From IMG/VR virus record IMGVR_UViG_3300044712_001463: a DNA stretch of 64,000 nt. The stretch is one strand, 5' to 3'. This document shows positions 47,971 to 62,899 of the stretch, in pieces. The position numbers and the translations under genes are program-made. This stretch comes from a virus (taxonomy: Duplodnaviria; Heunggongvirae; Uroviricota; Caudoviricetes). How positions within the stretch are numbered: position 1 is the stretch's first letter; each line of letters opens with the position of its first letter. The notes under the pieces were generated by a model that had not been told where the DNA came from, searched no databases, and worked only from the letters and a program-made list of their open reading frames with translations.

Positions 47971-47994
47971 AGAGATACACTCAAGGAGGCGGTC

Positions 47995-48159: not shown

Positions 48160-48170
48160 GGAGAGTCGTC

Positions 48171-48365
48171 ATGCACCTCATCTGCCCCAAGAACAAGAAA
48201 CACAAGTTGTTCAGTGTCACGGCGCACGAAGTTCACGACTGGACCGTGGATGAAGATGGCGAGTTCGTTGCCGACATGGGCTGTTCCGAGATGGCTCACC
48301 GCCCTGATGCCAACGACTCCTACCATTGCCTCAAATGTGGGGCGGTGGCTAAAGTTCGCTCTTGA
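48171..48365 (+). CDS. small zinc-ribbon-like protein (CPKNKKH...CLKCG)
   Basis: RBS aaggag. Confidence 0.45.
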   Translation: MHLICPKNKKHKLFSVTAHEVHDWTVDEDGEFVADMGCSEMAHRPDANDSYHCLKCGAVAKVRS

Positions 48366-48389
48366 CAAGTTCTCCCGAATAGATATAAT
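48362..48389 (+). promoter_or_regulatory. cassette promoter
   Basis: consensus. Confidence 0.7.
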
Positions 48390-48421
48390 AAAGTCATAAC
48401 CCTTCACTCAAGAGGTCGGTC

Positions 48422-48613
48422 ATGGCTCGGAACAAGAAGATCCGCATCTCGGAACAGGACTTCAAGCGGTATGTGCGGGTTCAGATGAGCGGCGTCACCA
48501 ACATGTTCGCCATCGACACCGTGCGGCGTCTGACGGGTCTGACCGAGCAGAAGATCAAGTCCATCATGGACAACTACGACTCCCTCTGCGATGCCTACCC
48601 TTCGGTCGGGTAA
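48422..48613 (+). CDS. hypothetical protein
   Basis: Promoter 48362; leader ctcaagaggtcggtcATG. Confidence 0.5.
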   Translation: MARNKKIRISEQDFKRYVRVQMSGVTNMFAIDTVRRLTGLTEQKIKSIMDNYDSLCDAYPSVG

Positions 48614-48656
48614 GTCAGCACCTCGTTCTAGTTCCGAGGATACCAAGCAACTAGCA

Positions 48657-48697
48657 AGAAAGACCTCTCTTAACCGAGAGGTCTTTTTGTTTGTCTT
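48657..48697 (+). terminator. rho-independent terminator
   Basis: agacctctcttaaccgagaggtctttttgtttg. Confidence 0.65.
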
Positions 48698-48753
48698 CAG
48701 TTATCTGGAATTTCCGGATACCTGCCACCTCCGTCGTAACCCCGGTCTCATCT

Positions 48754-48776
48754 AACCTACTTATTTTTAAGTAGGT
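48754..48776. repeat. inter-cassette palindrome ACCTACTTA-TTTT-TAAGTAGGT
   Basis: family member. Confidence 0.8.
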
Positions 48777-48828
48777 GCCTGCTAGCGACGCGCTCTTCAG
48801 AATTCTGGAGCAATTGTTGTATAAACCC

Positions 48829-48856
48829 TTGACAGGTTTTCATATCTATGTATAAT
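48829..48856 (+). promoter_or_regulatory. cassette promoter (TTGACAggt)
   Basis: consensus hexamers. Confidence 0.65.
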
Positions 48857-48900
48857 ACAACTATCAGCCCTGAATCACTTCTCTCTAAAGAGGCATCGTC

Positions 48901-49749
48901 ATGGCAAAGGACAGGTTCAACAGCGGGGACGAAGGAAAGAAGATGGACTGGCGGGCTCTTGAGTTGATTCAGGTCGAGAAGGTTCTCGGTTCCATTCCCA
49001 AGGGTCAGGTGTATGTGAGCCTCACCCACAAGTTCATGAAGCACGGCAAGATTGACCCCAAGTCGGAAGTCGGCATGGGGATTCGCCTTGGCATCTTCAG
49101 CCCCAAGCAGGTTGTGAGCGTGGATATGAATCCCTCTATCTGCGTTCTCAATCACCTTGGCAACCGTCAGGGAGTCAGCATCAAGCAGGGCGACCTCGCT
49201 CATGTGGTCAAGCGTCTTGTCGCGCAGGGCGTCAAGATTGCTTGGGTGTCGGCAGACCTCATGGCAATGCCCAAGAAGGTTGCTCCGTGGATTGCTTCCA
49301 TCATGGAGAGCCTGAACACCAAGGGACAGCCCGAAAAGGCAGGGCTGTTCGTCAACGCGGTGTCGCAGTCCCATGCCTACGATGTTCGGCACACCACCAT
49401 CCACAAGGTCATGGTGGCAGAGAGCGAAGAATTCAGGGCGGCATACCGCAAGTCGTCCTGCAAGCCCTCGGAGTGGCAGGAAGAAGATTGTCTGCTCTCC
49501 CACATCAACCACAGGACGGCAAAGGAGTGGATGCAGTCAGCCCTCTACATCAAGACACCCAACAAGGGATACAATCCCAACAAGAAGGTCGAACCCCCCA
49601 AGGCATCCGTTTACGCCATGCTCAAGAACGGGCAAAAGAAGCGCTACACGCGCATCGTCAACGAAATCGAGTGCCTCCGTTCTTCGGGCAAGAAAGCCGC
49701 CCGCCGCAGGTATCTCAACAGCCTCGTTGCAGGTTGGCTCGGCAAGTAA
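48901..49749 (+). CDS. hypothetical protein (282 aa, largest cassette gene)
   Basis: Promoter 48829; leader ctctctaaagaggcatcgtcATG; terminator. Confidence 0.55.
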   Translation: MAKDRFNSGDEGKKMDWRALELIQVEKVLGSIPKGQVYVSLTHKFMKHGKIDPKSEVGMGIRLGIFSPKQVVSVDMNPSICVLNHLGNRQGVSIKQGDLAHVVKRLVAQGVKIAWVSADLMAMPKKVAPWIASIMESLNTKGQPEKAGLFVNAVSQSHAYDVRHTTIHKVMVAESEEFRAAYRKSSCKPSEWQEEDCLLSHINHRTAKEWMQSALYIKTPNKGYNPNKKVEPPKASVYAMLKNGQKKRYTRIVNEIECLRSSGKKAARRRYLNSLVAGWLGK

Positions 49750-49769
49750 GCCCCAAACATCCTGAAGCA

Positions 49770-49810
49770 AACCAAGACCTTCCTAAATCGGGAAGGTCTT
49801 TTTCTTTCCC
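49770..49810 (+). terminator. rho-independent terminator
   Basis: agaccttcctaaatcgggaaggtctttttctttcc. Confidence 0.65.
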
Positions 49811-49847
49811 GGTCATCGCTGCGACTGGAGTGGCGCCTGGTCTCATC

Positions 49848-49872
49848 TGACCTACTTAAATATAAGTAGGTC
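49848..49872. repeat. inter-cassette palindrome GACCTACTTA-AATA-TAAGTAGGTC
   Basis: family member. Confidence 0.8.
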
Positions 49873-50038
49873 TTATCCGGGCAGCCCGCTGCAACTGATG
49901 TCCCAGGTGAGTAGTACTTTATTCTGAGGGCTCCCCTAATCTAGGTTCAAAACCTACTATAGATAGTTAGGGAATAATGTCCTACCCCTGCCCTTTATAT
50001 ATCAGGAAGACAAAACAACCCATTCTCTGAGGTGAGTC

Positions 50039-50353
50039 ATGTGGCACTACTCCATCAAGCAGTTCAACTACCAGACGGGGCAGTTCGAGTTTTACTCCCA
50101 CGGAGTCTCGACAGAGCACGAGGGGTGGGAGGTCGTCTTTGCCAATGCCGAGCAGTTCAGGTTGGTGGAGGCACCCCGGAAGTTCGGGCAGGTGCGACAC
50201 GGTATGCGTGCCACACTGACGGATAGGGCAACGCGGGAGGTAGTCTTTGTCGCACGGGTCTTTGAGGACGGAAACCCTGAGCAGCACGAACCCCTTCCTG
50301 GCGAGCCGCTCGAATACGAAGACCTCGCATCTCCCCTGGATTCTGAAGACTAG
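50039..50353 (+). CDS. hypothetical protein
   Basis: SD gaggtgag; no consensus promoter upstream. Confidence 0.45.
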   Translation: MWHYSIKQFNYQTGQFEFYSHGVSTEHEGWEVVFANAEQFRLVEAPRKFGQVRHGMRATLTDRATREVVFVARVFEDGNPEQHEPLPGEPLEYEDLASPLDSED

Positions 50354-50362
50354 TAGTCAAGT

Positions 50363-50397
50363 AAAAGAAGCCCCTAGAAATAGGGGCTTTTCTTTTG
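50363..50397 (+). terminator. rho-independent terminator
   Basis: gaagcccctagaaataggggcttttcttttg. Confidence 0.65.
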
Positions 50398-50444
50398 CGC
50401 AAACAACCAGGCGTCAGTTTGCCGGAGCTCCTGGGGACTCATAT

Positions 50445-50466
50445 ACCTACTTATATATAAGTAGGT
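50445..50466. repeat. inter-cassette palindrome ACCTACTTA-TATA-TAAGTAGGT
   Basis: family member. Confidence 0.8.
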
Positions 50467-50520
50467 CAGATGTCTCCTCCGCCAGCTAGCCGGGATCGAT
50501 CTGACTGGCGTCATCTCTTC

Positions 50521-50548
50521 TTGACAAGTTCTCATATTCATGTATAAT
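50521..50548 (+). promoter_or_regulatory. cassette promoter
   Basis: consensus. Confidence 0.7.
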
Positions 50549-50577
50549 AGACTTACACCCAAACCAAGGAGTAAGTC

Positions 50578-50751
50578 ATGGGATGCGATAACTGCAAATA
50601 CCTTAAGAGGCAGATATACGGTCTTCGCATGGATGGAACTGTTGATACTATCGGTTCCTGTATGTTCCTCGTCAATGGCATCAAGATTCGTGGCGCTAAG
50701 AAAGAAACCGACACCTGCGCCGACTTCGAAGAAACCCCAACCAAGGAGTAA
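50578..50751 (+). CDS. small Cys-containing protein (57 aa)
   Basis: Promoter 50521; SD aaggagtaag. Confidence 0.4.
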   Translation: MGCDNCKYLKRQIYGLRMDGTVDTIGSCMFLVNGIKIRGAKKETDTCADFEETPTKE

Positions 50752-50754
50752 GTC

Positions 50755-50991
50755 ATGAACAATCAAGAGCGCCAAGCCCTCATCAACGAACTGAACGCCA
50801 ACCTCAAGTCCATCCACAAGTGCTCCCGCCACACCCGCCGTGAACGGGCAGTCAGCGCAATGAAGGTCTGCCTTGCGCTCGGCAAGGACACGGACAACCG
50901 TGAGGATGGCGTCATCGACCTCTGCAAGAGCATCGTCAAGGCATCGGGGTATGCCTACGAGCGAATCGTCAACCTCGCCTTCATCCTCTGA
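50755..50991 (+). CDS. hypothetical protein
   Basis: SD aaggagtaag. Confidence 0.5.
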   Translation: MNNQERQALINELNANLKSIHKCSRHTRRERAVSAMKVCLALGKDTDNREDGVIDLCKSIVKASGYAYERIVNLAFIL

Positions 50992-50998
50992 GCAGGTC

Positions 50999-51175
50999 AT
51001 GGAAATCGTCATCCTCGAAAAATACACAGGCGGCAACCTCGTCAAGAAAGAACTTGCCGCCTTGAAGCAGGGGAAGAATCCGTGGAAGGGAGTAAGCGGA
51101 TTGAGCCCCTTGGTTAAGAAGATACAAAAGAGGAATGAAAAACTTCAGAACTTCAAAAAGCAATTCTCTTACTAG
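50999..51175 (+). CDS. small protein (58 aa)
   Basis: ATG after upstream stop. Confidence 0.35.
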   Translation: MEIVILEKYTGGNLVKKELAALKQGKNPWKGVSGLSPLVKKIQKRNEKLQNFKKQFSY

Positions 51176-51185
51176 GAGCGCCATC

Positions 51186-51425
51186 ATGCAAATCCACCTG
51201 TTGGTCATGGAAGAGATGAAACCCATCCCCAAGAACATCAAGGTTCTGTTTGACTGGGATGAAGTGGGCATCGTCACGGACAAGAAAACCACCGTCTCGG
51301 GGACGCACATGATGGTGGAAGGCACCGAGGAAGCGCTCAAGGCATGGCTGTCGCCGTTCGATGCTGTCTGGGTGGGCAAGGGAGCGCCCCAACTTCAGAA
51401 CTTCCAAGTCATGCACATCGCCTAG
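51186..51425 (+). CDS. hypothetical protein
   Basis: SD taggag. Confidence 0.45.
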   Translation: MQIHLLVMEEMKPIPKNIKVLFDWDEVGIVTDKKTTVSGTHMMVEGTEEALKAWLSPFDAVWVGKGAPQLQNFQVMHIA

Positions 51426-51436
51426 GGAGCCCTGTC

Positions 51437-51712
51437 ATGGAAATTACCAACATCGAGCAGTTGTATGACACCATGAGGGATTGCGGCATCTGCACCCCTG
51501 GTGAACGTTGGGCAGGTGGTCTTTCCCATCATCCCAAGTCCATCGCACTGTTCAATGCGCTTTCCGTCATCGATATGGTGACGAACAAGGGCGAAGGGGA
51601 TTGGACCTCTGGTGGTGACGGAGACAACGGAGAGCAGTTGATGTATCTTTTCGACATCATTTTCGAACTCGAAGGACTCGGATATACCGTCAGCAAAGAT
51701 GCGTGGATGTAG
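51437..51712 (+). CDS. hypothetical acidic protein
   Basis: SD tagggag. Confidence 0.45.
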   Translation: MEITNIEQLYDTMRDCGICTPGERWAGGLSHHPKSIALFNALSVIDMVTNKGEGDWTSGGDGDNGEQLMYLFDIIFELEGLGYTVSKDAWM

Positions 51713-51759
51713 TCATGGCACATATCCGACTTAGGTCAACCCGAAAAATGCGCTGAACT

Positions 51760-51800
51760 AAAAGAGGGCTCTCTTAACTGGGAGCCCTCTTCAGTTTTCC
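51760..51800 (+). terminator. rho-independent terminator
   Basis: agagggctctcttaactgggagccctcttcagttttcc. Confidence 0.6.
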
Positions 51801-51831
51801 GGTCATCTCCTCCCGGGGATCACCGGTAATA

Positions 51832-51854
51832 GACCTACTTACTTTTAAGTAGGT
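51832..51854. repeat. inter-cassette palindrome GACCTACTTA-CTTT-TAAGTAGGT
   Basis: family member. Confidence 0.8.
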
Positions 51855-51896
51855 ATAGCCTACCTAGCCAGGGAACCCGACCTGGTCATCTCGAGC

Positions 51897-51924
51897 TTGA
51901 CAAGTTCAAAGATTTCGGTATAAT
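51897..51924 (+). promoter_or_regulatory. cassette promoter
   Basis: consensus. Confidence 0.7.
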
Positions 51925-51944
51925 AGAATCAAGGAGATAGCCCA

Positions 51945-52352
51945 ATGCAAATCCACCAAACAATCGGCAAGGTGCGTAGCGCTCTAGAGATTTATGCTAG
52001 CCGCCATCATCTGCTCGGAGCAGACGAAAGTCTGACCTGCTGGTGTGCCATTGGGTCATCCGTTCTCAAGCGCATCCTGAAGGAAAAGCACAATCTCAAT
52101 CCCAAGTTTGTCCGAGGTGCGTGTCTCAATGGCAATCACTGCTGGATTGAATTAGAGGAATACGCGATTGATATAACCGCGTCGCAGTTCTTCAATCAGA
52201 AGGTAAAGATATTCAAGACCAAGAAATACAACAAGGATGAATACGACCCTATCGAAGTCCTAGAGAACGAATACAAACTTGATTGGGGAGACCAAGCACC
52301 CAAACCCAAGCACCTCAAGGCAGTAAAGGCAATCCTCAAAACCCTCTCTTAA
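51945..52352 (+). CDS. hypothetical protein
   Basis: Promoter 51897; SD aaggag. Confidence 0.5.
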   Translation: MQIHQTIGKVRSALEIYASRHHLLGADESLTCWCAIGSSVLKRILKEKHNLNPKFVRGACLNGNHCWIELEEYAIDITASQFFNQKVKIFKTKKYNKDEYDPIEVLENEYKLDWGDQAPKPKHLKAVKAILKTLS

Positions 52353-52375
52353 TCGGAGAGGGTTTTCTCTTTCCC
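52339..52375 (+). terminator. rho-independent terminator
   Basis: aaccctctcttaatcggagagggttttctctttcc. Confidence 0.65.
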
Positions 52376-52411
52376 GGCGATCTCTTCCGGTACGCGTGCA
52401 GCACTGCCAAA

Positions 52412-52433
52412 ACCTACTTATCTTTAAGTAGGT
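52412..52433. repeat. inter-cassette palindrome ACCTACTTA-TCTT-TAAGTAGGT
   Basis: family member. Confidence 0.8.
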
Positions 52434-52476
52434 GCCTGCCACCACCAGGATGTCCTCCCAGCGGGCGACTTTCTCC

Positions 52477-52504
52477 TTGACAAGTTCGCCTATTTATGTA
52501 TAAT
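52477..52504 (+). promoter_or_regulatory. cassette promoter (unit near-identical to 53528)
   Basis: consensus. Confidence 0.7.
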
Positions 52505-52534
52505 ATAATCATACCCAAACAAAGAGGTGCTCAA

Positions 52535-52756
52535 ATGAATCCGTGGGTTTCCTCAATCATCTTCCTCTCCTTCATCCTCATCTGCGCCAAGGACAAGATT
52601 CTTGCTCTGTTCTGTATCCTGCTCTTCATCGCAGAGAACACCTACTTCGGGTGGAACCTGCATCCTTCCTGCACAGGGGAAGAGGTCTGCGACTTGTTCG
52701 TTCTCATCGTTGGCATCTTTGCCCTCTTCCACGAACCCAAGACAAAGGAGAATTAA
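52535..52756 (+). CDS. small membrane protein
   Basis: Promoter 52477; start ATG 52535. Confidence 0.5.
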   Translation: MNPWVSSIIFLSFILICAKDKILALFCILLFIAENTYFGWNLHPSCTGEEVCDLFVLIVGIFALFHEPKTKEN

Positions 52757-52758
52757 CC

Positions 52759-53169
52759 ATGTCCATCCTCAAGCAAGCGCTCGACCTGTCAGGCGTCATC
52801 GACAAGAACGAAACAGCGAAGCAGGTGAATGAAGTCATCGACACCCTCGACCTTCACAGCAAGGAAGGAACCGCTGTCGGCAAGAACCTCGGTGTCCTGC
52901 TCTCGGCAACCAAGTTCGCTCATCACCTCGGAACCTTCAAGGCACTCTTCATCGTCATCCTCAACCTCGCTCTCTACAACAACATCCCTAATCACCTGCT
53001 CGCCATCTCTCTCGCCGTCCTCATCGACTTCCTCTTTCTCAGGTCTATGAAGTCCGTCCAAGAACGGTTCATGGTGGTCTGCATGGCATGGACTACCGAC
53101 TTCACCCTCGGCAGGTTCGACATGGAAGGCAATTCAGTCAAGACCTACACGAAGTTGATTCGGAAGTAG
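52759..53169 (+). CDS. membrane protein
   Basis: SD aaggag; start ATG 52759. Confidence 0.5.
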   Translation: MSILKQALDLSGVIDKNETAKQVNEVIDTLDLHSKEGTAVGKNLGVLLSATKFAHHLGTFKALFIVILNLALYNNIPNHLLAISLAVLIDFLFLRSMKSVQERFMVVCMAWTTDFTLGRFDMEGNSVKTYTKLIRK

Positions 53170-53382
53170 GACCATCGCAGTTCAGGTGTCCCTTCACAGG
53201 GTAAGACGACAAAAGGGTTCGCGTTTCATGGTAACGTCGAAGGATGTGGGTTCCTATTAGGAATTGCTAGGGACCAAGGTTAGAACCCCATTACCTACTT
53301 CACATCCGCAAGGGTAAGATAATCCCTGCATCTGACAAGCGTAATCTCATTCCCGTTCTGAGAAAACCAAGCAACGGGCAAT

Positions 53383-53420
53383 AATGAAACCCTCTCCTGC
53401 AAGAGAGGGTTTTTTGTTTG
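53383..53420 (+). terminator. rho-independent terminator
   Basis: aaaccctctcctgcaagagagggttttttgtttg. Confidence 0.7.
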
Positions 53421-53463
53421 TCAGCAGTCCCCACTGGTACCGGACATCTCCGACGGCAATAGA

Positions 53464-53483
53464 ACTACTTATATATAAGTAGG
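53464..53483. repeat. inter-cassette palindrome aCTACTTA-TATA-TAAGTAGG
   Basis: family member. Confidence 0.75.
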
Positions 53484-53527
53484 TAGGACATCCCAAGAAG
53501 TTCTCCTCCCAGGGGACTACTTCGCCC

Positions 53528-53555
53528 TTGACAAGTATTCGAATTTATGTATAAT
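53528..53555 (+). promoter_or_regulatory. cassette promoter
   Basis: consensus. Confidence 0.7.
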
Positions 53556-53585
53556 ATAATCATACCCACCAAACAGGAGACTTCC

Positions 53586-53825
53586 ATGACCAAGAACATC
53601 TTCAATGCAATCGTCATCACCTACATGCTCATCGCCATCGCTGTCTCCTGCTACTGCAATATCATCAAGGGGTTCCGAATCTTCGACCTGCCCATGCAGT
53701 TTCGGGAAGAGGTCTACACCGCTTCAGGTCTGCTGTGGAACCACATCACCACCGATTTCGCCCTGCTCTGCCTGATTCCCACCCTGCTTGTTGGGGTCTA
53801 CATCATCTTCTTTGTGAAGGACTAG
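53586..53825 (+). CDS. small membrane protein
   Basis: Promoter 53528 with leader near-identical to 52477 unit; start ATG 53586. Confidence 0.5.
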   Translation: MTKNIFNAIVITYMLIAIAVSCYCNIIKGFRIFDLPMQFREEVYTASGLLWNHITTDFALLCLIPTLLVGVYIIFFVKD

Positions 53826-53827
53826 TC

Positions 53828-54046
53828 ATGTTGACCTTCAAGGAAAACGTCAAGAAGTTCGGCAAACCCATTCAGGGCAAGGTCTATGACTGCAAACTCC
53901 AAAGTTTCACCTCGGGCAAGATTGTCGAGGAAAAGTTAGTCGCGGTCTTCAAGGATGACTGTGCGTGGAGAACGGCAGATGACTTCTCGGAAATCAACGA
54001 GATGAATTGGAACGTCATCGAATGGCATCTTGCCAAGGAGAAGTAG
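53828..54046 (+). CDS. hypothetical protein
   Basis: SD gaagga. Confidence 0.4.
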   Translation: MLTFKENVKKFGKPIQGKVYDCKLQSFTSGKIVEEKLVAVFKDDCAWRTADDFSEINEMNWNVIEWHLAKEK

Positions 54047-54048
54047 TC

Positions 54049-54294
54049 ATGAGCAATCCTCTGCGACAGGACAGACTTCCCAAGGACAAGAAGACCAAGC
54101 GGTGCCCTGCTTACATCCGTGAGAAGTATGGACTTGACAGGAGGGGCAAGGGGAAGAACGGGGAACTCTCCCTGCTTCAGGCATCCCACATCCTCGCTCA
54201 CCGCCCTGAACCTACCCTGCGTGAACACATCGAAACCTTCATCGCCAAGGTTTTCGGATATGAAGGCAACCTTCCTTGGAATGAGAGGATGTAA
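54049..54294 (+). CDS. hypothetical basic protein
   Basis: SD aaggag. Confidence 0.45.
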   Translation: MSNPLRQDRLPKDKKTKRCPAYIREKYGLDRRGKGKNGELSLLQASHILAHRPEPTLREHIETFIAKVFGYEGNLPWNERM

Positions 54295-54437
54295 TGACTA
54301 CCTTCGTTCTTATCCTCATAGTGTTTGCTTCCCTTACCTTCCTCTTTGGCATGATTGGTCTTGCCTTGTGGGGAATGGGGTTCATCAAGGGAACCATGCC
54401 CCTAACCAAAGCAAACACTGTTGGTCTTCGCCTTTAA
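54294..54437 (+). CDS. small TM peptide (47 aa)
   Basis: TAATG overlap; hydrophobic. Confidence 0.3.
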   Translation: MTTFVLILIVFASLTFLFGMIGLALWGMGFIKGTMPLTKANTVGLRL

Positions 54438-54440
54438 TCC

Positions 54441-54468
54441 TTGACAAGTCTTTAAGAATAGATATAAT
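54441..54468 (+). promoter_or_regulatory. cassette promoter
   Basis: consensus. Confidence 0.7.
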
Positions 54469-54498
54469 AAAGATACACCCCAACAAAGGAAGTCAGTC

Positions 54499-54744
54499 AT
54501 GAAACTCACGTGGACAGTCTCTAAGGTTCCTGGGTGCTCCTCCAAACACTACATCTCCAATCCGCACCCCATGGTCAAGTTCGTCATCACCACTGCCTGT
54601 GGTTCATCCAAGGAAGGAAGGGTCTACATGTTCGGGGGTTGCATTCCCCACATCGGGTTCGGCAGTCTAGACAACTGCAAGAAAGCATGCGAAGATTTCT
54701 ACAACGGTCTCCTCGCTCTCTCTTCCCCTCCCTCAGGAGTCTAA
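54499..54744 (+). CDS. Cys-containing hypothetical protein
   Basis: Promoter 54441 (near-identical to 39732 unit); SD aaggaag. Confidence 0.5.
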   Translation: MKLTWTVSKVPGCSSKHYISNPHPMVKFVITTACGSSKEGRVYMFGGCIPHIGFGSLDNCKKACEDFYNGLLALSSPPSGV

Positions 54745-54815
54745 CATGTCCGTCGTCCGAGTCACTTCCCATCGCAAGATGCACTAGAATCCTGGAAAAC
54801 CCTTGTAACTCAAGC

Positions 54816-54846
54816 ACAAAGCCCCAGAAATGGGGCTTTTTTGCGT
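54816..54846 (+). terminator. rho-independent terminator
   Basis: aaagccccagaaatggggcttttttgcg. Confidence 0.65.
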
Positions 54847-54912
54847 GCCATAGACTGCCATAAGGCGCCTTATGACCTGTACCGGCTAGAAATGCGGGCA
54901 AAATACTTCATT

Positions 54913-54932
54913 TCTACTTAAATATAAGTAGT
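54913..54932. repeat. inter-cassette palindrome tCTACTTA-AATA-TAAGTAGt (last copy, at GC-rich/AT-rich boundary)
   Basis: family member. Confidence 0.7.
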
Positions 54933-55028
54933 TTTAACTGGAGAAAAAGGGCTTGATCTGGATAAGAAATTCGAGTTTTCTGAGGAAAGCGAGCCAGGTC
55001 CCCATATCCACGCTTTATAACTTTTCGT

Positions 55029-55158
55029 CAAAAGTTTTGTCCAATGCAAATCAATAAATGTACTTGGCTATTTAAAAAATTTTGCCATTAGAAATCAAAA
55101 CCTTTTGTCCAAAAAGTAGTTCGCTATTTTTTTATTGGGAAAATTTCGCGCCAAAACC
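55029..55158. repeat. four iteron-like direct repeats aaa(N)TTTTG(T/C)CCAa in AT-rich non-coding DNA
   Basis: caaaagttttgtccaa; aaaaaattttgccatt; aaaaccttttgtccaaaaa; gaaaatttcgcgccaaaacc. Confidence 0.5.
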
Positions 55159-55209
55159 CTTTTATAATAGCACCTAGTCCAAACCCCGTCCTTATCAGTT
55201 CTTGGCAAA

Positions 55210-55253
55210 GTGTGACACCAGTACTGTTATGGGTAGTATGTATGGTGTCACAC
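55210..55253. repeat. 10 bp perfect inverted repeat GTGTGACACC-N24-GGTGTCACAC
   Basis: Read directly; at boundary between cassette array and AT-rich operon. Confidence 0.7.
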
Positions 55254-55329
55254 TAATTAAAAATCTTTTAAAAGGTAAGAAAATTGAGTATAGTAGAAAG
55301 CGAGAACTTCTAACTTTCGGGGGCTACAG

Positions 55330-55650
55330 ATGGTTATTGCATTTGCATATGTATTGTTTTTAATAGTGATGTCCATTATAACCAAGGTATGGTATAAATG
55401 GTATAAAATGAAGTTGGATAGTTCGAATTCATTTTATATGGACATGCCTAGGATACATAGGCAGATTTATTCTGTGCTTGAGGATATAGCAGATGACATG
55501 TTCATTATATATGTTTTGCTTATGCCTATTTTTTTAATAGGCTTTTTGGTTATTGGTATCTTTGTATTATTCGTTTATGTAATAGATTTATTATCAGAAA
55601 AGATTTTTATTATAGCGACATCTAAAAATAAATTAAATAAGAAGGGGTAG
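55330..55650 (+). CDS. small membrane protein
   Basis: 2 TM helices. Confidence 0.45.
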   Translation: MVIAFAYVLFLIVMSIITKVWYKWYKMKLDSSNSFYMDMPRIHRQIYSVLEDIADDMFIIYVLLMPIFLIGFLVIGIFVLFVYVIDLLSEKIFIIATSKNKLNKKG

Positions 55651-55652
55651 AC

Positions 55653-55901
55653 ATGCATTTGCCGTATAAGGGCAAAATCCTAGCCTTCGATTCTGACGGG
55701 TTTGTTTATAGGACCGACCAAGAGGGCGAGTTTAGTATAATAAAGGGTTTAAAGGGCAACTGGATGCCAAATAGCGTGTATGTGGAAGGGGATTGGACGG
55801 TCTATTTATCAGAAGGAATAACAATAAATCAAGTAACAGAATGGCAGGGGACTTGGATACTTGAAAACTTAAGAAATCCACCTGGGACTAGCAATGGCTA
55901 A
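55653..55901 (+). CDS. hypothetical protein
   Basis: Coupled ORF. Confidence 0.45.
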   Translation: MHLPYKGKILAFDSDGFVYRTDQEGEFSIIKGLKGNWMPNSVYVEGDWTVYLSEGITINQVTEWQGTWILENLRNPPGTSNG

Positions 55902-56106
55902 GCGTGTATATCGAAAGGTTATTGGCAAGACATTTGTTATCAAGAAAAAGCATCGTAGTAAAATCATTGATTTTACTACTGGGGATGTTATTAATAGAAT
56001 AAAGATTATAGGTTTTCTAGACAATGGTTATGAAGGGTTTTTTAAAAGAAACCTTATTTACAAGATGACCTACTATCAATTGAAAAAGTATTATAAAGAG
56101 GTCTAG
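55894..56106 (+). CDS. hypothetical protein
   Basis: Overlap coupling. Confidence 0.4.
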   Translation: MAKRVYRKVIGKTFVIKKKHRSKIIDFTTGDVINRIKIIGFLDNGYEGFFKRNLIYKMTYYQLKKYYKEV

Positions 56107-56109
56107 ACC

Positions 56110-56349
56110 ATGCGCATACTTGGCGAGATGTTTAAATGCAGGATGAATGTAGATGAATTATCTGATTGTATGCCTAAGTATGTTCTTGTCATGCGTCGAG
56201 AGACCCATGCATCTAGAGGCAAGGCATATCATATTCTTTTTGCCGATGACAAGCAAACGCTTTTAAAGCGAACCCATCGTCGGGATTTTCTTTACGCTCG
56301 GATATCGCCATATATCCTAAAGACTTACTATGATAGGGTCAAAAGGTGA
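56110..56349 (+). CDS. hypothetical protein
   Basis: Coupled ORF. Confidence 0.4.
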   Translation: MRILGEMFKCRMNVDELSDCMPKYVLVMRRETHASRGKAYHILFADDKQTLLKRTHRRDFLYARISPYILKTYYDRVKR

Positions 56350-56367
56350 GAAAATTTTTAATTTTTT

Positions 56368-56604
56368 GTGTTTCGGATGAATTTGTATATACCCCGACCC
56401 TCGGATGATATAACAATGGCTTCCAAGAGACACATTAGAAGAAAGATGTGCAACGGCAAGACCGCATACAAAGAGCAGCAATTTGCTGTGCTAGCGCTTA
56501 TTAATATGAAACGTAATGACGATTGCGAAAATATGTGCTCCTATAAATGTTCATTTTGCAAACAATGGCACATTGGACATTTTGATCCAAAGAGAAGGCA
56601 ATGA
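56368..56604 (+). CDS. small Cys4 zinc-ribbon-like protein
   Basis: CENMCSYKCSFCKQWH. Confidence 0.4.
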   Translation: MFRMNLYIPRPSDDITMASKRHIRRKMCNGKTAYKEQQFAVLALINMKRNDDCENMCSYKCSFCKQWHIGHFDPKRRQ

Positions 56605-56834
56605 AGATAATCGGAAAAGTATTCAAAAGAGTCGGTGGCTCCCATAGATGGAAGTATATGAAGGTTCAATCAAGAACCTTCTATGGAGGTTTGGGAGCCG
56701 CTGCCGGATACAGTGCAGGGAAATACAGCTATAATGTTCGTTGCTCTGATAAGATCAGTGAACTTAATGAAGTCGATGGCTCATGGGATTTTCTTTCATA
56801 TTACGAACTAAAAAGAGATTACATACCAGTATAG
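56601..56834 (+). CDS. hypothetical protein
   Basis: ATGA coupling. Confidence 0.4.
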   Translation: MKIIGKVFKRVGGSHRWKYMKVQSRTFYGGLGAAAGYSAGKYSYNVRCSDKISELNEVDGSWDFLSYYELKRDYIPV

Positions 56835-56933
56835 GAGAATTGAAAATGATAAGAGAATTCCTGGAAGCAATCGGCAAAACCAAAGAACAGCATTATCAAG
56901 AATGCTTTGATAATTTTCACTTAGAGGTCTCGT

Positions 56934-57155
56934 GTGAATAAGCTAATGTTAGCATTTGCTTTGGTTCTGATGCTGAGAGTGACCTGGACCGACAGTCCTC
57001 CCATCGGGAAAAATTCAGACATGGATGGCGTGGTTGTTGGGTCGCTTGCCATTGCAAATGTGCCTCATTTTCTAGTCAGAACTGATGATGGCAAGATTCA
57101 TCAGGTTGTTGTTGATTATATTTATAGTAGCAAATGGGCGGAGGTAAAGCAATGA
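56934..57155 (+). CDS. secreted small protein (signal peptide), paralog of 61360
   Basis: LMLRVTWT signal segment; shared motifs with 61360. Confidence 0.45.
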   Translation: MNKLMLAFALVLMLRVTWTDSPPIGKNSDMDGVVVGSLAIANVPHFLVRTDDGKIHQVVVDYIYSSKWAEVKQ

Positions 57156-57367
57156 AGAAACTATTGAAGAAGTTTGATGGCGACTTATGGATATATAACG
57201 ATGACTTTGTTAATAAGAACTTCAATGAGGCCGACAAGCGGGATATTATCTTTTGGCGCTGGGAGATTAGAGTTCTCAAACTTATATTTTTTGTTACTAT
57301 GACTGCATCTGTATTAGGAATGATCTATTGCCTTTACAAACTTTTCAAGGGGATGATTCATGGATAA
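57134..57367 (+). CDS. membrane protein
   Basis: TM helix. Confidence 0.4.
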   Translation: MGGGKAMKKLLKKFDGDLWIYNDDFVNKNFNEADKRDIIFWRWEIRVLKLIFFVTMTASVLGMIYCLYKLFKGMIHG

Positions 57368-57629
57368 TAAAGAAATTCAAGAGTTGTCAAGAATCTTCGC
57401 ATTCGAAATTATTAATAAAATGAATGAACGAAGCAGATGGGGATGGGATTATCTAAACTTTGAAATTGGACCCCTTATTCCAGAAGAAGCCATCAAGGGC
57501 GTTGTTGCTTTCTTAAATGACCCTGGAAGATGCGAACACCTAGCAACAGGAAAAGAAATCGCCTATCGTGGCGTTCACTATACCAATGGTGAAACAAAGA
57601 ATTGGCTGATAAGTATTTCCTGGGCTTAA
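57360..57629 (+). CDS. hypothetical protein
   Basis: Coupled ORF. Confidence 0.4.
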   Translation: MDNKEIQELSRIFAFEIINKMNERSRWGWDYLNFEIGPLIPEEAIKGVVAFLNDPGRCEHLATGKEIAYRGVHYTNGETKNWLISISWA

Positions 57630-57646
57630 CCTAAAGGAGAAATTAA

Positions 57647-57946
57647 ATGAATATGTGCGCCGTTAAAAAGACTGCAAGGGATTTTGGTGTTTTTTTTGGA
57701 ATAACTGCTGGGATTTTTTTATTTGGCGGGCTATTAGTTTCCTGGGTCAATTTTTGCGTCGAACATAAATGGGGTCCATTTATTGGGCTTATTCCCATGT
57801 ATCCAATTTGTGCTTTTCTTTGTTTTATGGTTATTAAAGCTGAATATAATCACAATGTTATGTTATGCGAATGTGCCGCTGAACGAGAAAAGCAATATGC
57901 AGAACGAGAGAAGAAGGCAAACAAAAAGAAGAGGAGTAAGCGATGA
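57647..57946 (+). CDS. membrane protein
   Basis: RBS aaggag; 2 TM. Confidence 0.45.
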   Translation: MNMCAVKKTARDFGVFFGITAGIFLFGGLLVSWVNFCVEHKWGPFIGLIPMYPICAFLCFMVIKAEYNHNVMLCECAAEREKQYAEREKKANKKKRSKR

Positions 57947-58425
57947 AGAATTTTAAAGTTTTAGGTATATCTATATTGGCTATTTTTTTAATTTTATTAT
58001 CTGTAATATTGTTTAATAAAACTCACAAGAAAATGTTTGATGTAAAACTTATCGACAGTCCTTTTGTAGACGAAGCCATGGATGCCCAAAAGCATAAACT
58101 GACTTACACCGAACGGCTTGGCGATATCTATGGTGGAAAAATTATTGGAAAGTATTACGACAGAGGAGACCAGGACTCATGTATGATGGTAACTGATAGG
58201 CGTTGGGGAATAGTGGCTAGTGATAAGAACTTCTTGATTGATACCAATGTTGGCGATAAGGTCTGGTTTCACTATGACTACAGCAGAAACATCTGGTATA
58301 CCAAAACAGAGAAAAGTGCAATCGAATACAAACATCCAATTATGAATGGAATTGATGGCGGAGCTGGGATATCCGAAATTACAAAAGAACAATTCAATAA
58401 GATTAAAGCAAAAACGGAGAAATAA
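57943..58425 (+). CDS. signal-anchored protein
   Basis: N-terminal TM; ATGA coupling. Confidence 0.45.
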   Translation: MKNFKVLGISILAIFLILLSVILFNKTHKKMFDVKLIDSPFVDEAMDAQKHKLTYTERLGDIYGGKIIGKYYDRGDQDSCMMVTDRRWGIVASDKNFLIDTNVGDKVWFHYDYSRNIWYTKTEKSAIEYKHPIMNGIDGGAGISEITKEQFNKIKAKTEK

Positions 58426-58426
58426 G

Positions 58427-58651
58427 ATGAATAAGACTATTAAAACCAGCATCAGTGGACCTCGCTGGGCAAATATTACTAACTTCCTTTTTCAAGCCAG
58501 TGTTGCTTATGGTTTTGATTTAGAGATACTTTATCGTGACAAAGGCTGGTTTAGGGAAGAAGTATTTTTTAAGATGAGTGGAGAGAGGAATATGGTAGAA
58601 GGTGCTTATAATGAAATAGTCAGACAACTTGAGGAGCATAACAAATCATGA
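58427..58651 (+). CDS. hypothetical protein
   Basis: Start ATG 58427. Confidence 0.4.
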   Translation: MNKTIKTSISGPRWANITNFLFQASVAYGFDLEILYRDKGWFREEVFFKMSGERNMVEGAYNEIVRQLEEHNKS

Positions 58652-58869
58652 GTAAACTAGATGCGCTTATATCAGAAATAGAGAAAAAAGGTTTTGATTG
58701 GAAATATGATTCCTTACATGGATGTGCTGAAATATGTAAATATAATAAAACTAGTTGTACATATTATGATGGTGAAGGCAAGAGTTGTTTAGAAGCCCTA
58801 GAAGATGCTTATAAAAAGTATAAGCAAAAAAAGGGAATCAAATCAGGTCCAGGAGATTGGGCGTTATAA
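58648..58869 (+). CDS. small Cys-containing protein
   Basis: ATGA coupling. Confidence 0.4.
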   Translation: MSKLDALISEIEKKGFDWKYDSLHGCAEICKYNKTSCTYYDGEGKSCLEALEDAYKKYKQKKGIKSGPGDWAL

Positions 58870-58882
58870 AAGGAAAATCAAA

Positions 58883-59074
58883 ATGAAAACCATCCTATTA
58901 GTATTGTCTTTAGTTCTGCTTTCTGGCTGTGTTACAGTGAAGCCAGTCCAGCCAATTACTAGACAACAACTGGTTTCCAATATGGTTGCTGAGATGATTT
59001 ATTGTTGGGACCGTGGATATCTAGATCAATGTCAGTGTTATAAAAACCTATTGAACAAACCATGCTCGGAGTAG
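58883..59074 (+). CDS. putative lipoprotein (lipobox LLSGC)
   Basis: Signal peptide + Cys lipobox. Confidence 0.45.
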   Translation: MKTILLVLSLVLLSGCVTVKPVQPITRQQLVSNMVAEMIYCWDRGYLDQCQCYKNLLNKPCSE

Positions 59075-59078
59075 TAAA

Positions 59079-59297
59079 ATGAAAGCCATCATTTGTAAGT
59101 GCGGACATGAGGAATGGAAACACGATGATGGTTTTATAGATCAAGAATGTGGGGTTATTTATCAGGAAAAAGGTTGTAGGGAGTGTGATTGCAAAGAAGG
59201 TTATGAACAACTTATTATCGAGCGCCTTGAATCACTTGAAACCGAAAACGAAGAACTCAAGACTAAATTAAATACAAAGCAAGGAGTAGCAAAATGA
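59079..59297 (+). CDS. zinc-ribbon + coiled-coil protein, paralog of 60838
   Basis: MKAIICKCGHEEWKHDD...GCRECDCKEG. Confidence 0.5.
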   Translation: MKAIICKCGHEEWKHDDGFIDQECGVIYQEKGCRECDCKEGYEQLIIERLESLETENEELKTKLNTKQGVAK

Positions 59298-59536
59298 AAA
59301 TTATCCTACTAGCACTCCTATTATCACTTGGCATTGGTCTAGCCGCTCAAGATGTTAAAGTAGTTTGTTCCACTGGATCATTTTTTGGGCTAGAGGATGA
59401 ATTAAATAACAAATTAGTTAAGCTTATTAAATCTGGATATAAAGCGCAGGGAGGCGTTTCGGTTTCAGTATGCAATCTTGATCTAGGTGGTGGTTTTAGA
59501 TATATAATCTGCCAAACAATGGTAAAGGAGAAATAA
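59294..59536 (+). CDS. secreted small protein
   Basis: Signal peptide. Confidence 0.45.
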   Translation: MKIILLALLLSLGIGLAAQDVKVVCSTGSFFGLEDELNNKLVKLIKSGYKAQGGVSVSVCNLDLGGGFRYIICQTMVKEK

Positions 59537-59537
59537 A

Positions 59538-59876
59538 ATGGGATTCCTATCAAAACTATTCCCTCCAGATCCGCCACATGTTCCGAAGTGGTATGCTATG
59601 TCAAGGAAGCGATATGAAGAATATGATAAAAGGCATTTGGAGGAATGCGGGAGTGTCATTAAAAAGAATATATATACAATTTCTAGAAATCAATCATTCG
59701 TAATATATTTCAATGGAAGTAAGGAGATTGATCGTGGATATATTACAGACATAAGTAATATGGACTTTGAAGAAGTAACTGACAAAGAGGCTATAAAGAG
59801 ACTAGATAAGATTTATGCTGATTTTAAAAAGAAGACAGAGCAGGAATATAGAAAACACATGCTTGCGGAGGATTGA
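59538..59876 (+). CDS. hypothetical protein
   Basis: Coupled ORF. Confidence 0.4.
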   Translation: MGFLSKLFPPDPPHVPKWYAMSRKRYEEYDKRHLEECGSVIKKNIYTISRNQSFVIYFNGSKEIDRGYITDISNMDFEEVTDKEAIKRLDKIYADFKKKTEQEYRKHMLAED

Positions 59877-60245
59877 GTGACGCCAAAATTTACAGCAACT
59901 ATAGGTAATATACGTTTTGGACAGACTCCTATGGGAACCGGTCCACATGGAGGTCATGCCGGAGATCAATGGATGGGTGACGTTTTTATAAGGAAAGATA
60001 AAAAAACAGTTAAGGTAATTAAAAATGTAGTCATTGATTATAATAGCGACGAGACTATTGCGCCTTCGGAAAGCAAGTTAAAAAGCAGGTGCGCCGACAA
60101 ACTACATGATTACATTCGAAACATTGAGTCTGAAAAACTAGAAGAACAATTTGAAGTCGATTATAAACGAAAGAAGAGGATGGCAAAACAGAAGGCTAAT
60201 GATATCGCAAAAACAGTAAAAGTTGAAATCGGAGGATTAAAATGA
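59877..60245 (+). CDS. hypothetical protein (GTG start)
   Basis: TGAGTG junction. Confidence 0.35.
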   Translation: MTPKFTATIGNIRFGQTPMGTGPHGGHAGDQWMGDVFIRKDKKTVKVIKNVVIDYNSDETIAPSESKLKSRCADKLHDYIRNIESEKLEEQFEVDYKRKKRMAKQKANDIAKTVKVEIGGLK

Positions 60246-60652
60246 ATAATAAATATGTACTAATTTTGATTTTTATTACTGTCGCTATTTTAGCCATCGG
60301 TTTAAATTATTATAAGAATCATCCAAAAGTTCAAACCATATCAATCATGAAAGACGAAAACTCCACACCATTGCCAAACCTAGAAGCCCTTAAGTGGTAT
60401 TGTGTAGGGCTCAATCAAGCCGCATGTTATGTTGTAGACGATAAAAAGAAGTATAAGGACTTGTCAATTATATTCATCAATGATGGTCCTGGATTTAACT
60501 TTGATAGAAAAGAAATACAGGAAATCATTGAGTTAGGTCGTTATGATATCTCAAGAACAGTTGAGGCTCCAGTAAAGCTTAACGACTACACCGTAAATGC
60601 GACTGGATACTTTCTTAAGGAGAAAAAAAATGAACATAGAAACCGTCGTTAG
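60242..60652 (+). CDS. signal-anchored protein
   Basis: N-terminal TM. Confidence 0.45.
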   Translation: MNNKYVLILIFITVAILAIGLNYYKNHPKVQTISIMKDENSTPLPNLEALKWYCVGLNQAACYVVDDKKKYKDLSIIFINDGPGFNFDRKEIQEIIELGRYDISRTVEAPVKLNDYTVNATGYFLKEKKNEHRNRR

Positions 60653-60836
60653 TGTAAGCAACAAGGATTTGAAAGATTCTGCAAAAGATAAGCAAGTTGG
60701 AGATGTTTCATTTTTTGACTTTACAGTTCCAATTGAACTTTTTGAAAAAGCAGACAGGGTAATATATGAAGGAGATAATTTTAGAAAGATTATAAAGGAT
60801 AGACGCAATTCAGTTGGTGTTATTTTTAGGAGTTGA
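60630..60836 (+). CDS. hypothetical protein
   Basis: SD aaggag; start ATG 60630. Confidence 0.4.
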   Translation: MNIETVVSVSNKDLKDSAKDKQVGDVSFFDFTVPIELFEKADRVIYEGDNFRKIIKDRRNSVGVIFRS

Positions 60837-60837
60837 A

Positions 60838-61194
60838 ATGAAACCGATTATCTGTAAGTGCGGGCATGATTGGTGGCGACATGATGAAGCCAACTCTGAT
60901 CTTGAGCAGAAAAAAGGTTGCAGAAAATGTGATTGTAAAAAAGGAGACGATGAACTTATCTTTGAAAGAATAGAGTCTCTAGAAAATAGAGTAAGGGCTT
61001 ATAGAAAGGCTTGGGCTGACAAACGGTTACATTGGAAAATTGCCGATAACTGTGCAAAACAATTCGTTAAATCAAATATGAACCTTATTGATAAAAATAG
61101 TAAATTAGAAGCAAAGTTAAATCCTAAATGCACTTGTCAAAAGTGTTCGGGTCTACCAGAAGAACTTAGTGATGCCAATCTTTACAAGGAGTAG
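60838..61194 (+). CDS. zinc-ribbon + coiled-coil protein, paralog of 59079
   Basis: MKPIICKCGHDWWRHDE...GCRKCDCKKG. Confidence 0.5.
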   Translation: MKPIICKCGHDWWRHDEANSDLEQKKGCRKCDCKKGDDELIFERIESLENRVRAYRKAWADKRLHWKIADNCAKQFVKSNMNLIDKNSKLEAKLNPKCTCQKCSGLPEELSDANLYKE

Positions 61195-61198
61195 TAAG

Positions 61199-61360
61199 GT
61201 GAAATATATTTATATTGTCAAAAATAAACATAATCCCTTGGCTTATTTTACTACAAAAGAATTAGCTGAAGAATTCATCGAAATGAATGACTGGGCTTGC
61301 AATATGTGGATTACCAAAGAAGAAATTGATGCACCAATTGAAAAAATGGAGTTGGCGTAA
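61199..61360 (+). CDS. hypothetical protein (GTG start)
   Basis: SD aaggag. Confidence 0.35.
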   Translation: MKYIYIVKNKHNPLAYFTTKELAEEFIEMNDWACNMWITKEEIDAPIEKMELA

Positions 61361-61584
61361 TGAAAACTCTGCTTTCAGTTCTCTTACTGACTGTTATGCT
61401 TCGTGTTTGGTGGACAGAGCACGACCACTTAGGAATGCATTACAAAGCTGGTAGTGGTATTTTGATAAATGTAGGAGGCTATGGTCTTCTTTATGTGGTA
61501 AATGATAGTGGTGGTCTTATAACAATAAAATCAAAGGTTATTAATAAAATGAAATGGGTTGAAGTTAATGCTGAGAAGTCATAA
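61360..61584 (+). CDS. secreted small protein, paralog of 56934
   Basis: VMLRVWWT signal segment. Confidence 0.45.
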   Translation: MKTLLSVLLLTVMLRVWWTEHDHLGMHYKAGSGILINVGGYGLLYVVNDSGGLITIKSKVINKMKWVEVNAEKS

Positions 61585-61867
61585 AGTTTTGAAAAGGAGT
61601 AGTTATGCATTTTGGACACTTTAGTTTTACGCACTTCTTTGAGTTCCTGGCGGCTATCATTGCTTCGAGGATTGTCTGGCATTATATCAGAAAGTATCTA
61701 CCATAGGAGAATAAAATGTACGTATTCGTTGTTATAGGAAAGCCATGGGAAGAGCCAGTCGTATTTGCCGAAAGGGAAAAGGCTGAAATGTATTGCGAAG
61801 ATGCAAATGGATATGAAGAATTGAATGATGGTTTCGAATATAAAGTCTTTCCTTGTGAGGTGATAAA

Positions 61868-62152
61868 ATGAAATGGTCATACGAGGCTCCGCAGCAAGCA
61901 AATCCAAAATACTTTCCAGGTTGCCATTGGTTTAGCGTGGAAGACAAGAAGTTTCATATCTCCTTTCTAGTAGAAGTCCTTGTGTTTCCCAAAGAGGTCT
62001 ATAAAGCAAATGTTGGTTTTAAATCTCCAGAACATATTGAAAGTATTTATCAAAAGCAGTTTAAAGATTTGAACGCCGCAAAGAAATGGTGTGAAAGCAA
62101 AGTTCGTAGCACTATTGCCAATATGTTAAAACAGGTCCCGAAGACATTATGA
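61868..62152 (+). CDS. hypothetical protein
   Basis: 94 aa. Confidence 0.4.
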   Translation: MKWSYEAPQQANPKYFPGCHWFSVEDKKFHISFLVEVLVFPKEVYKANVGFKSPEHIESIYQKQFKDLNAAKKWCESKVRSTIANMLKQVPKTL

Positions 62153-62898: not shown

Positions 62899-62899
62899 A

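Follow-up and report, generated by a model that had tools for sequence, protein, structure and literature searches.

The locus of interest lies in a 64,000-nucleotide stretch of tailed-phage DNA (Caudoviricetes; IMG/VR record IMGVR_UViG_3300044712_001463), referred to below as the window. Every gene of the window is on the + strand. Towards its 3' end, a 585 bp gap (54745-55329) separates the last gene of a GC-rich block of early genes from the first gene of an AT-rich block (Table 1). Part of this gap, 54933-55320, was singled out in an earlier note, made from the sequence, as a non-coding region with four iteron-like direct repeats and an inverted repeat. The non-coding claim is borne out: the gap contains no ATG-initiated + strand open reading frame (ORF) and no ORF of more than 53 amino acids (aa). 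Two candidates for its content were dropped, namely small ORFs (merely TTG-start ORFs of at most 53 aa) and a pseudogene remnant, for which a tblastx signal was absent. A covariance-model search of the region with Rfam 15 returned sub-threshold matches alone (E at least 0.13), and these lie outside the repeats. On either side of the gap, the product of 54499-54744 has zero Pfam or PHROG matches, and the gene at 55330 is preceded by a Shine-Dalgarno-like G-rich run (55318-55323).

The gap coincides with a change in base composition. GC content falls from 0.52-0.53 at 54500-54899 to 0.32-0.35 at 54900-55399, and remains at 0.34-0.38 from the region to the window end (64000). The sharp drop from 52% to about 33% reported earlier is thus real, but the low GC content extends for at least 9 kb and hence marks the boundary of a compositional block rather than a local island. 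Even the AT-richest 60-100 bp of the region (at 55047; GC 0.23-0.25) belongs to the lowest 6-7% of AT-block segments, and coding DNA elsewhere in the window drops to GC 0.13-0.17. Four compositional blocks can be drawn in the window, with boundaries near 3.8, 28.6 and 54.9 kb: ~1-3.8 kb at roughly 37-45% GC (genes up to ~51%), 4-28.5 kb at ~33%, 29-54.9 kb at ~50%, and 55-64 kb at ~35%. Over 45653-59228 the window agrees base for base with an independent Logan assembly, and the junction is therefore not an assembly chimera.

Table 1. Features in and around the 54745-55329 gap (window coordinates; a dot marks features given no strand).
Feature	Position	Strand	Details
Last early promoter	54440-54468 (position weight matrix match from 54435)	+	CTTGACAAG, 14 nt, TATAAT (TTGACA-16-TATAAT)
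Last gene of GC-rich early block	54499-54744	+	81 aa, ORFan; called on Logan assembly
Phased A/T tracts, predicted curved DNA	54760-54930 (periodicity signal 54700-54920)	.	strongest 10-11 bp AA/TT periodicity in the 64-kb window
Intrinsic terminator, AAAGCCCCA-GAAA-TGGGGCTTT plus T-run	54818-54842	+	9-bp perfect stem plus T6
Last of 15 palindromes	54914-54931	.	cassette homology ends here; ends 1 nt before the region of the earlier note
A repeats	55030, 55074, 55098, 55140 (span 55030-55156)	+	sequences present; not above chance
B repeats, interleaved with A repeats	55056-55073, 55112-55129	+	sequences present; not above chance
-10 and initial-transcribed half of early-type promoter, TTTATAATAGCACCTAGTCCAAAC	55161-55190	+	no -35 element
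Perfect inverted repeat, 12/12 bp, 22-nt spacer	AGTGTGACACCA 55209-55220 / TGGTGTCACACT 55243-55254	.	self-comparison, shuffles
Candidate boundary promoter motif TTTTAAAAGGTAAGAAAATTGAGTATAGTAG, 31 bp	55266-55296	+	-35 TTTAAA 55267-55272, 16 nt, -10 TATAGT 55289-55294
First gene of AT-rich block 2	55330-55650	+	106 aa, predicted membrane ORFan; called on Logan assembly

The last promoter-like feature of the gap is a 31-bp motif that occurs once more in the window, at 3840-3870; this second position is the other GC-to-AT boundary, and none of 100 shuffles produced a match. The same pair of sites emerges from an unbiased comparison of the 150 bp upstream of 55330 with every 150-bp segment, in which the 3.8-kb boundary is top-ranked (score 30, against a mean of 16.1 and a standard deviation of 2.8; z ~4.9, calculated from those figures). 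The 3840-3870 copy sits directly 3' of the terminator of the last early gene at that boundary, with 8 nt separating it from the first ORF of AT block 1. Both copies come after a hairpin and immediately before the first ORF of an AT block. The 16-nt spacer of the motif equals that of the phage's early promoters, and the closely related AATTGAGTATAAT forms the -10 of a promoter-like site at 29124-29152. Downstream, the genes of 55330-64000 overlap or abut, giving an operon of at least 8.7 kb. Promoter-like matches within it number 39 (33 +/- 6 in shuffles) and terminator-like matches six (5.2 in shuffles). With these matches at shuffle level and the genes abutting, the gap is the only distinctive control region of the block.

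Twelve nucleotides upstream of the TTTAAA (-35) of the boundary motif ends the proximal arm of the inverted repeat, which thus lies between that motif and the half-promoter at 55161-55190. The repeat is perfect, as had been claimed, and longer than the 10 bp first given; perfect inverted repeats of at least 12 bp arise in 2/300 Markov shuffles of the region (p ~0.007). Each arm carries a 9-bp palindrome, GTGT-S-ACAC. Most other long inverted repeats of the window, unlike this one, are terminators or cassette palindromes (described below). Read as RNA, the repeat folds into an 18-bp bulged hairpin (-23.4 kcal/mol, z = -3.8), the inner stem of which uses G-U pairs. The sequence 3' of the stem is AATTAAAAATCTTTT; there is no T-run, and the terminator scan does not report the stem. 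Intrinsic terminators consist of a GC-rich stem with a U-run directly 3' of it; because the T-run is missing, the inverted repeat is not a canonical one. It also contains GTGACA-16-TAGTAT, which matches the sigma70 consensus at 9/12 positions, a score of chance-level frequency. CRP/FNR-type sites have the form TGTGA-N6-TCACA. Here TGTGA (55211-55215) and TCACA (55248-55252) are separated by 32 nt instead of 6, and CRP had been dismissed correctly on these grounds.

Further upstream stands half of an early-type promoter. It reads TATAATAG-N8-CCAAAC, with TATAAT at 55163, and at a half-matrix score of 12.7 (true promoters: minimum 6.0, median 19.7) it is the best half-site in the window unattached to a -35 element. 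An early-promoter -10 and downstream half, followed by a hairpin of the above stability with G-U pairs in its inner stem, would suit a small RNA of ~90 nt that starts ~7 nt past the TATAAT and ends at the 55209-55254 hairpin. In a variant of this proposal, the half-site would open a 155-nt 5' untranslated region (UTR), with the hairpin serving the 55330 mRNA as a stability or RNase III element. Four observations speak against both: the -35 element and an extended -10 are both absent, the hairpin is missing a U-run, there is no Rfam match, and the gap as a whole folds no better than shuffles (z = -1.2). Together, the two variants strike us as improbable.

The region of the earlier note begins where a highly regular array stops. 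A position weight matrix (PWM) scan of the window identified 35 near-identical sigma70 consensus promoters, cTTGACAag-N14-TATAATAgagtcAt, each followed by a short conserved 5' UTR (...ctctaagaggtcggtc ATG). All 35 matches are on the + strand and in GC-rich blocks (948-3463, 28686-54468), with none in AT-rich blocks. The second repeated element is the palindrome CTACTTA-N4-TAAGTAG(GT), of which there are 15 strictly conserved sites between 28648 and 54931 (e.g., 33978, 39062, 49852 and 54914), giving 30 matches when each site is counted on both strands (0.09 expected). In the 29-55 kb block the elements follow a fixed order: terminator hairpin, ~50 nt, palindrome, 33-55 nt, promoter. A terminator always lies on one side of the palindrome and the next early promoter on the other, with the -35 a variable 33-55 nt away. 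The first copy of the palindrome is identical to the last, down to an AAATA loop, and the two bracket the 26-kb GC-rich block. The CTACTTA palindrome could be either a protein-binding or a recombination site. In their promoters, palindromes and terminators in register, and in their ORFan genes, these units resemble the promoter-early stem-loop (PeSL) cassettes described in the T4-type phages RB49/phi1 (Arbiol et al. 2010, PMC2839356; Comeau et al. 2014, PMC4122927).

The final cassette ends without a promoter. The last early promoter (54440) has a full PWM score of 47.0, inside the range of the other 34, and the terminator and palindrome of the final cassette align with those of other cassettes. 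After the last palindrome, no CTTGACAAG promoter follows and the alignment with other cassettes stops; the region of the earlier note is without the cassette promoter CTTGACAAG-N14-TATAAT, there being no PWM match after 54435. A decayed early promoter at 54938 was considered and dropped (PWM score 0.9, wrong distance from the palindrome). The phased A/T tracts span the last terminator and the last palindrome; their normalised power is 10-13.9, where the 99th percentile over the window is 7.3. The repeat region itself was also considered for curvature, and this was dropped, since periodicity is unremarkable there and the strong signal is upstream.

Alternatively, the gap might be a recombination scar or spacer, consisting for the most part of DNA without a function that remained after PeSL-type or illegitimate recombination, at the CTACTTA palindrome or beside it, had joined an AT-rich gene module to the array end. 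The -35-less TATAAT would then be a relic of a lost last promoter, the inverted repeat a relic hairpin or terminator, and the direct repeats a product of chance. Several observations are consistent with this: cassette homology and GC content both break within 1-2 nt of the palindrome end (54931), the transition in the other direction, from AT to GC, is more gradual and has the first palindrome copy (28648) within its zone, the half-promoter at 55161-55190 lacks a -35, and the direct repeats are indeed at chance level (see below). In addition, recombination at PeSL cassettes has been documented in T4-type phages (PMC2839356). Two points count against a scar throughout. Firstly, the boundary-shared 31-bp motif and the significant 12-bp inverted repeat speak for a function of the final 120 bp at the least. 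Secondly, the downstream block needs some promoter, because there is a good terminator upstream. We regard a scar as possible, if on the unlikely side. It is compatible with our preferred reading over 54932-55208, and differs from it mainly on the function of 55209-55296.

That preferred reading, to which we assign a probability of about one half, is that the gap is the promoter and regulatory leader of the AT-rich polycistronic block, situated just past the last PeSL-like cassette. The positions and statistics of the features are observed directly; from them we infer promoter activity, the timing of expression and the kind of molecule that reads the inverted repeat. Under the proposed mechanism, (i) transcription from the last early promoter (54440) would stop at the terminator at 54818-54842; (ii) cassette homology ends at the CTACTTA palindrome (54914-54931), the following 400 bp belonging compositionally to the AT block; and (iii) the block starting at 55330 would be transcribed from a sigma70-type promoter with a weak -35, TTTAAA-16-TATAGT (55267-55294), representing a promoter class limited to the two GC-to-AT boundaries. 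The 12-bp inverted repeat is centred at about -70, its proximal arm ending 12 nt short of the -35. It may serve as an operator or activator site bound by a protein, or else, as RNA, fold into a hairpin by which transcripts from upstream, including any from the -35-less TATAAT at 55163, are insulated or processed. Either action would delay or modulate expression of the AT block relative to the early genes. The supposed iterons would be AT-rich, low-complexity sequence, and at most an UP-like or architectural element.

Several points weigh against this interpretation. Sigma70-type promoters have their -35 and -10 hexamers 16-18 nt apart and lie upstream of a gene; TTTAAA-16-TATAGT scores 9/12 against the sigma70 consensus, and sites of this quality occur at chance frequency in DNA as AT-rich as this; the case for a promoter thus rests on the two copies of one motif. 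The 3.8-kb boundary is without a counterpart of the inverted repeat, having a canonical terminator in that place. Among the proteins of the window, no DNA-binding protein or regulator was recognised. The reading leaves about 280 bp of the gap (54932-55208) unaccounted for. Finally, no relative of the phage was found in any collection searched.

The direct repeats of the earlier note do not stand up to comparison with shuffled sequence. The four proposed copies of aaa(N)TTTTG(T/C)CCAa occupy an AT-rich stretch (55030-55156) with A4-N1-3-T4 motifs, and consist of two exact 10-mers and two degenerate copies. Exact TTTTGYCCA has two matches alone in the region, at 55035 and 55103; the other two copies read AAAAAATTTTGCCAT (55074) and AAAATTTCGCGCCAA (55140). 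Four copies of a 15-mer, each at 11/15 or better, appear in 21% of Markov shuffles, and the best pair, at 13/15, is reached in 19%. Gapped self-alignment of the region gives p = 0.13, and Tandem Repeats Finder reports zero repeats in it. The four iterons are thus no better than chance, since shuffles of the same composition match them 13-21% of the time. Start-to-start spacings of the A repeats are 44, 24 and 42 bp, with no single helical phase. The first A repeat with its flank (55032-55059) matches 25533-25560, just 5' of the gene at 25585; an element common to the gap and the 25.3-kb intergenic region was dropped as a candidate, the identity being 21/28 and its p ~0.04 post hoc.

Of the functions put forward in the earlier note, the operator of an early-to-middle switch is the only one that fits the evidence: the promoter array ends here, a long block of genes without such promoters and without terminators begins, and the boundary motif also lies within the region. 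Origin, packaging and partition are unsupported, as set out below. The fourth A repeat (A4) occupies the -35 position of the 55161-55190 half-site, and a more specific version of the switch can be built on this arrangement. In it, the gap would be a cis element of a new early-to-middle switch, with a phage activator binding AAAAnTTTTGYCCAA boxes and a second factor binding GTGT-S-ACAC. The promoter-proximal box could replace the -35 of the TATAAT at 55163, following a MotA-like logic without MotA homology; the GTGT-S-ACAC factor could gate the boundary promoter, and the pair could effect a hand-over from the 35 host-type early promoters to the AT blocks. We hold this elaborated version to be rather doubtful.

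A replication origin was the first role proposed for the region. An initiator would bind the direct repeats and the AT stretch would unwind, with help from the curved DNA and the inverted repeat; alternatively, replication could be transcription-primed in a T7/T4-like manner. T7 and T4 origins adjoin promoters, and promoters are adjacent here too. Consistent with an origin are the absence of genes from an AT-rich region where repeats precede an inverted repeat, the window's strongest phased A-tract signal just upstream, and a local minimum of the cumulative GC skew at ~55.0-55.2 kb. Iteron origins contain at least three iterons of ~17-22 bp, clearly more alike than expected by chance and usually in helical phase, with an initiator (Rep/O-like) gene overlapping or adjacent, DnaA boxes and an exceptional DNA-unwinding element. 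The repeats here are at chance level and out of helical phase, the DnaA-box consensus TTWTNCACA is absent from the region, and its AT-richness is unexceptional for the block (minimum GC 0.23-0.25, lowest 6-7%). None of the genes up to ~9 kb away in either direction was recognised as coding for an initiator, helicase or primase (Pfam, PHROG); the flanking ORFs are all ORFans, so a novel initiator is possible. Over the 64-kb window, the skew minimum (~55.1 kb) coincides with the change in block composition and with no strand switch, the genes all being on the + strand, and a similar rise is seen at the 4-kb GC-to-AT boundary. Taken together, these results make an origin improbable.

Less likely still is a cis-acting DNA site for packaging (pac/cos) or partition, or a T5-like injection stop at the boundary between gene classes. 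A non-coding, repeat-bearing region between two expression blocks is superficially like the injection stop signal (iss) of T5 (10.1101/866236). At 0.4-0.6 kb the gap is short compared with the 1.2-1.7 kb of T5, DnaA boxes and large inverted repeats are absent, and terminase or Par genes were not seen nearby (Pfam, PHROG). Moreover, both assemblies read straight through the site, and similar cassettes flank the upstream AT block on both sides, so this is not a unique, genome-end-proximal site. We consider such a site very improbable.

Relatives of the phage were sought in several collections. Neither megablast nor blastn of the window DNA gave a match among 50,697 phage records, and IMG/VR pattern and protein scans returned no relative. 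A metagenome scan for the palindrome together with the promoter produced zero matches; a scan for the promoter module produced 35 single matches. These 35 contigs are not relatives, because the palindrome is present in none and the only protein in common is one TilS-like match. Among 5.8 billion proteins, the neighbouring 82-aa protein and a profile built from an 18-member paralogue alignment match this same 94,861-bp contig only. Retrieval of the encoding contigs yielded two Logan contigs alone, both identical to the window and neither reaching beyond it. Matches to the inverted repeat in genome collections (52 hairpins) were rejected: they are mostly a dispersed repeat of high-GC Actinomycetota metagenome-assembled genomes (MAGs), in unrelated sequence context. 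That repeat deserves a comment of its own. The hairpin base, GTGTGACACC...GGTGTCACAC, recurs as a dispersed nested palindrome (CACGGTGTGACACCGTG...) on many contigs of certain high-GC Actinomycetota MAGs (e.g., JBKPQU01); it is unrelated to the phage, and looks like an uncharacterised element of the repetitive extragenic palindrome (REP) or miniature inverted-repeat transposable element (MITE) kind.

Elsewhere in the window, ~25 tandem, ATGA-overlapping paralogues occupy 12267-28502 (with others at 8.6-9.5 kb, 11.6 kb, 41158 and 43120). All begin with the invariant peptide MISYRANLFESLNKQ; their bodies are highly divergent, and some are duplicated two-domain forms. Since both block types carry this N-terminal paralogue motif, the compositionally bimodal genome is not a chimera. 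Inside the paralogue array is a 317-bp non-coding gap (25268-25584), which contains the repeats TAGGCCAAAG (two copies) and ATTGTGG (two copies) and a hairpin (25456-25483) that no T-run follows. At 15 bp with a 9-nt loop, the perfect inverted repeat at 11606-11644 is the longest in the window; it is coding, and lies immediately 5' of the ISYREANLFESINK motif of ORF 11488-12270. Auxiliary genes at 216-3382, 6016-6825 and 29843-35183 encode an AAA ATPase, an MnmA-like tRNA 2-thiouridylase, an HNH endonuclease, an SPFH/Band-7 protein, a Dam-type methyltransferase and a TilS-like PP-loop protein, a set typical of large phages. Of the seven transfer RNA (tRNA) genes (Met x2, Arg x2, Lys, Gly, Phe), some stand directly under early promoters (30454, 34494). 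A GC content at third codon positions (GC3) of 0.85-0.89 is seen in some tiny early genes, e.g., 32074-32340, 44546-44773 and 48422-48613.

Taken alone, the gap would be an unremarkable intergenic control region; what is unusual is the genome around it. Correcting the iteron-origin reading averts a false origin annotation, and the work identifies a second, boundary-specific promoter-like motif. The gap is also a landmark, fixing the point at which a very regular array of 35 consensus promoters, terminators and 15 conserved palindromes ends, in a phage that is relative-free among the 5.8 billion proteins. If the phage or its host is recovered, the two promoter classes and the inverted repeat would offer handles on temporal gene control in a new lineage.

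Four known systems invite comparison. The likeness to lambda-type and plasmid iteron origins is superficial: direct repeats, an AT stretch, a flanking inverted repeat and bent DNA nearby are all present, but the repeats are at chance level and irregularly spaced, there is no recognisable adjacent initiator gene, and DnaA boxes are absent. With T5 iss, the gap shares its position as an untranslated, repeat-rich region between two temporal gene classes, in a large lytic phage with strong sigma70 early promoters. The T5 iss comprises 1.2-1.7 kb of untranslated DNA near the terminal repeat, with eight DnaA boxes and 131-bp inverted repeats (10.1101/866236), whereas the present gap is 585 bp long, has zero DnaA boxes and contains a longest inverted repeat of 12 bp.

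Closer parallels come from T4-type phages. T4 middle-mode promoters combine a sigma70 -10 with a MotA box in place of the -35 (reviewed in PMC2988021); the TATAAT at 55163, without a -35 and with the A4 box over the -35 position, at a boundary between early and later genes, is similarly arranged. It differs in that an A4-type box is absent from the window's other candidate promoters, homologues of MotA or AsiA were not detected, and the motif common to both boundaries has a weak -35 rather than an activator box. PeSL cassettes flank ORFans, carry strong promoters and terminators, and mediate modular shuffling in T4-type phages (PMC2839356). Unlike those phages, the present one has an extra, strictly conserved CTACTTA-N4-TAAGTAG between terminator and promoter, its array sits within a 50% GC block of an otherwise 33% GC genome, and no protein or DNA homology to T4-type phages was found; the likeness rests on cassette layout in the present phage, the recombination being documented in T4-type phages. 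That layout is nonetheless closely alike: dozens of intergenic cassettes, each with an early promoter of the sigma70 type plus a stem-loop or terminator, are interspersed with small ORFans, the region is plastic, and gene blocks further downstream are kept clear of early transcription by the terminators. The region of the earlier note starts where the last, truncated cassette of such an array stops.

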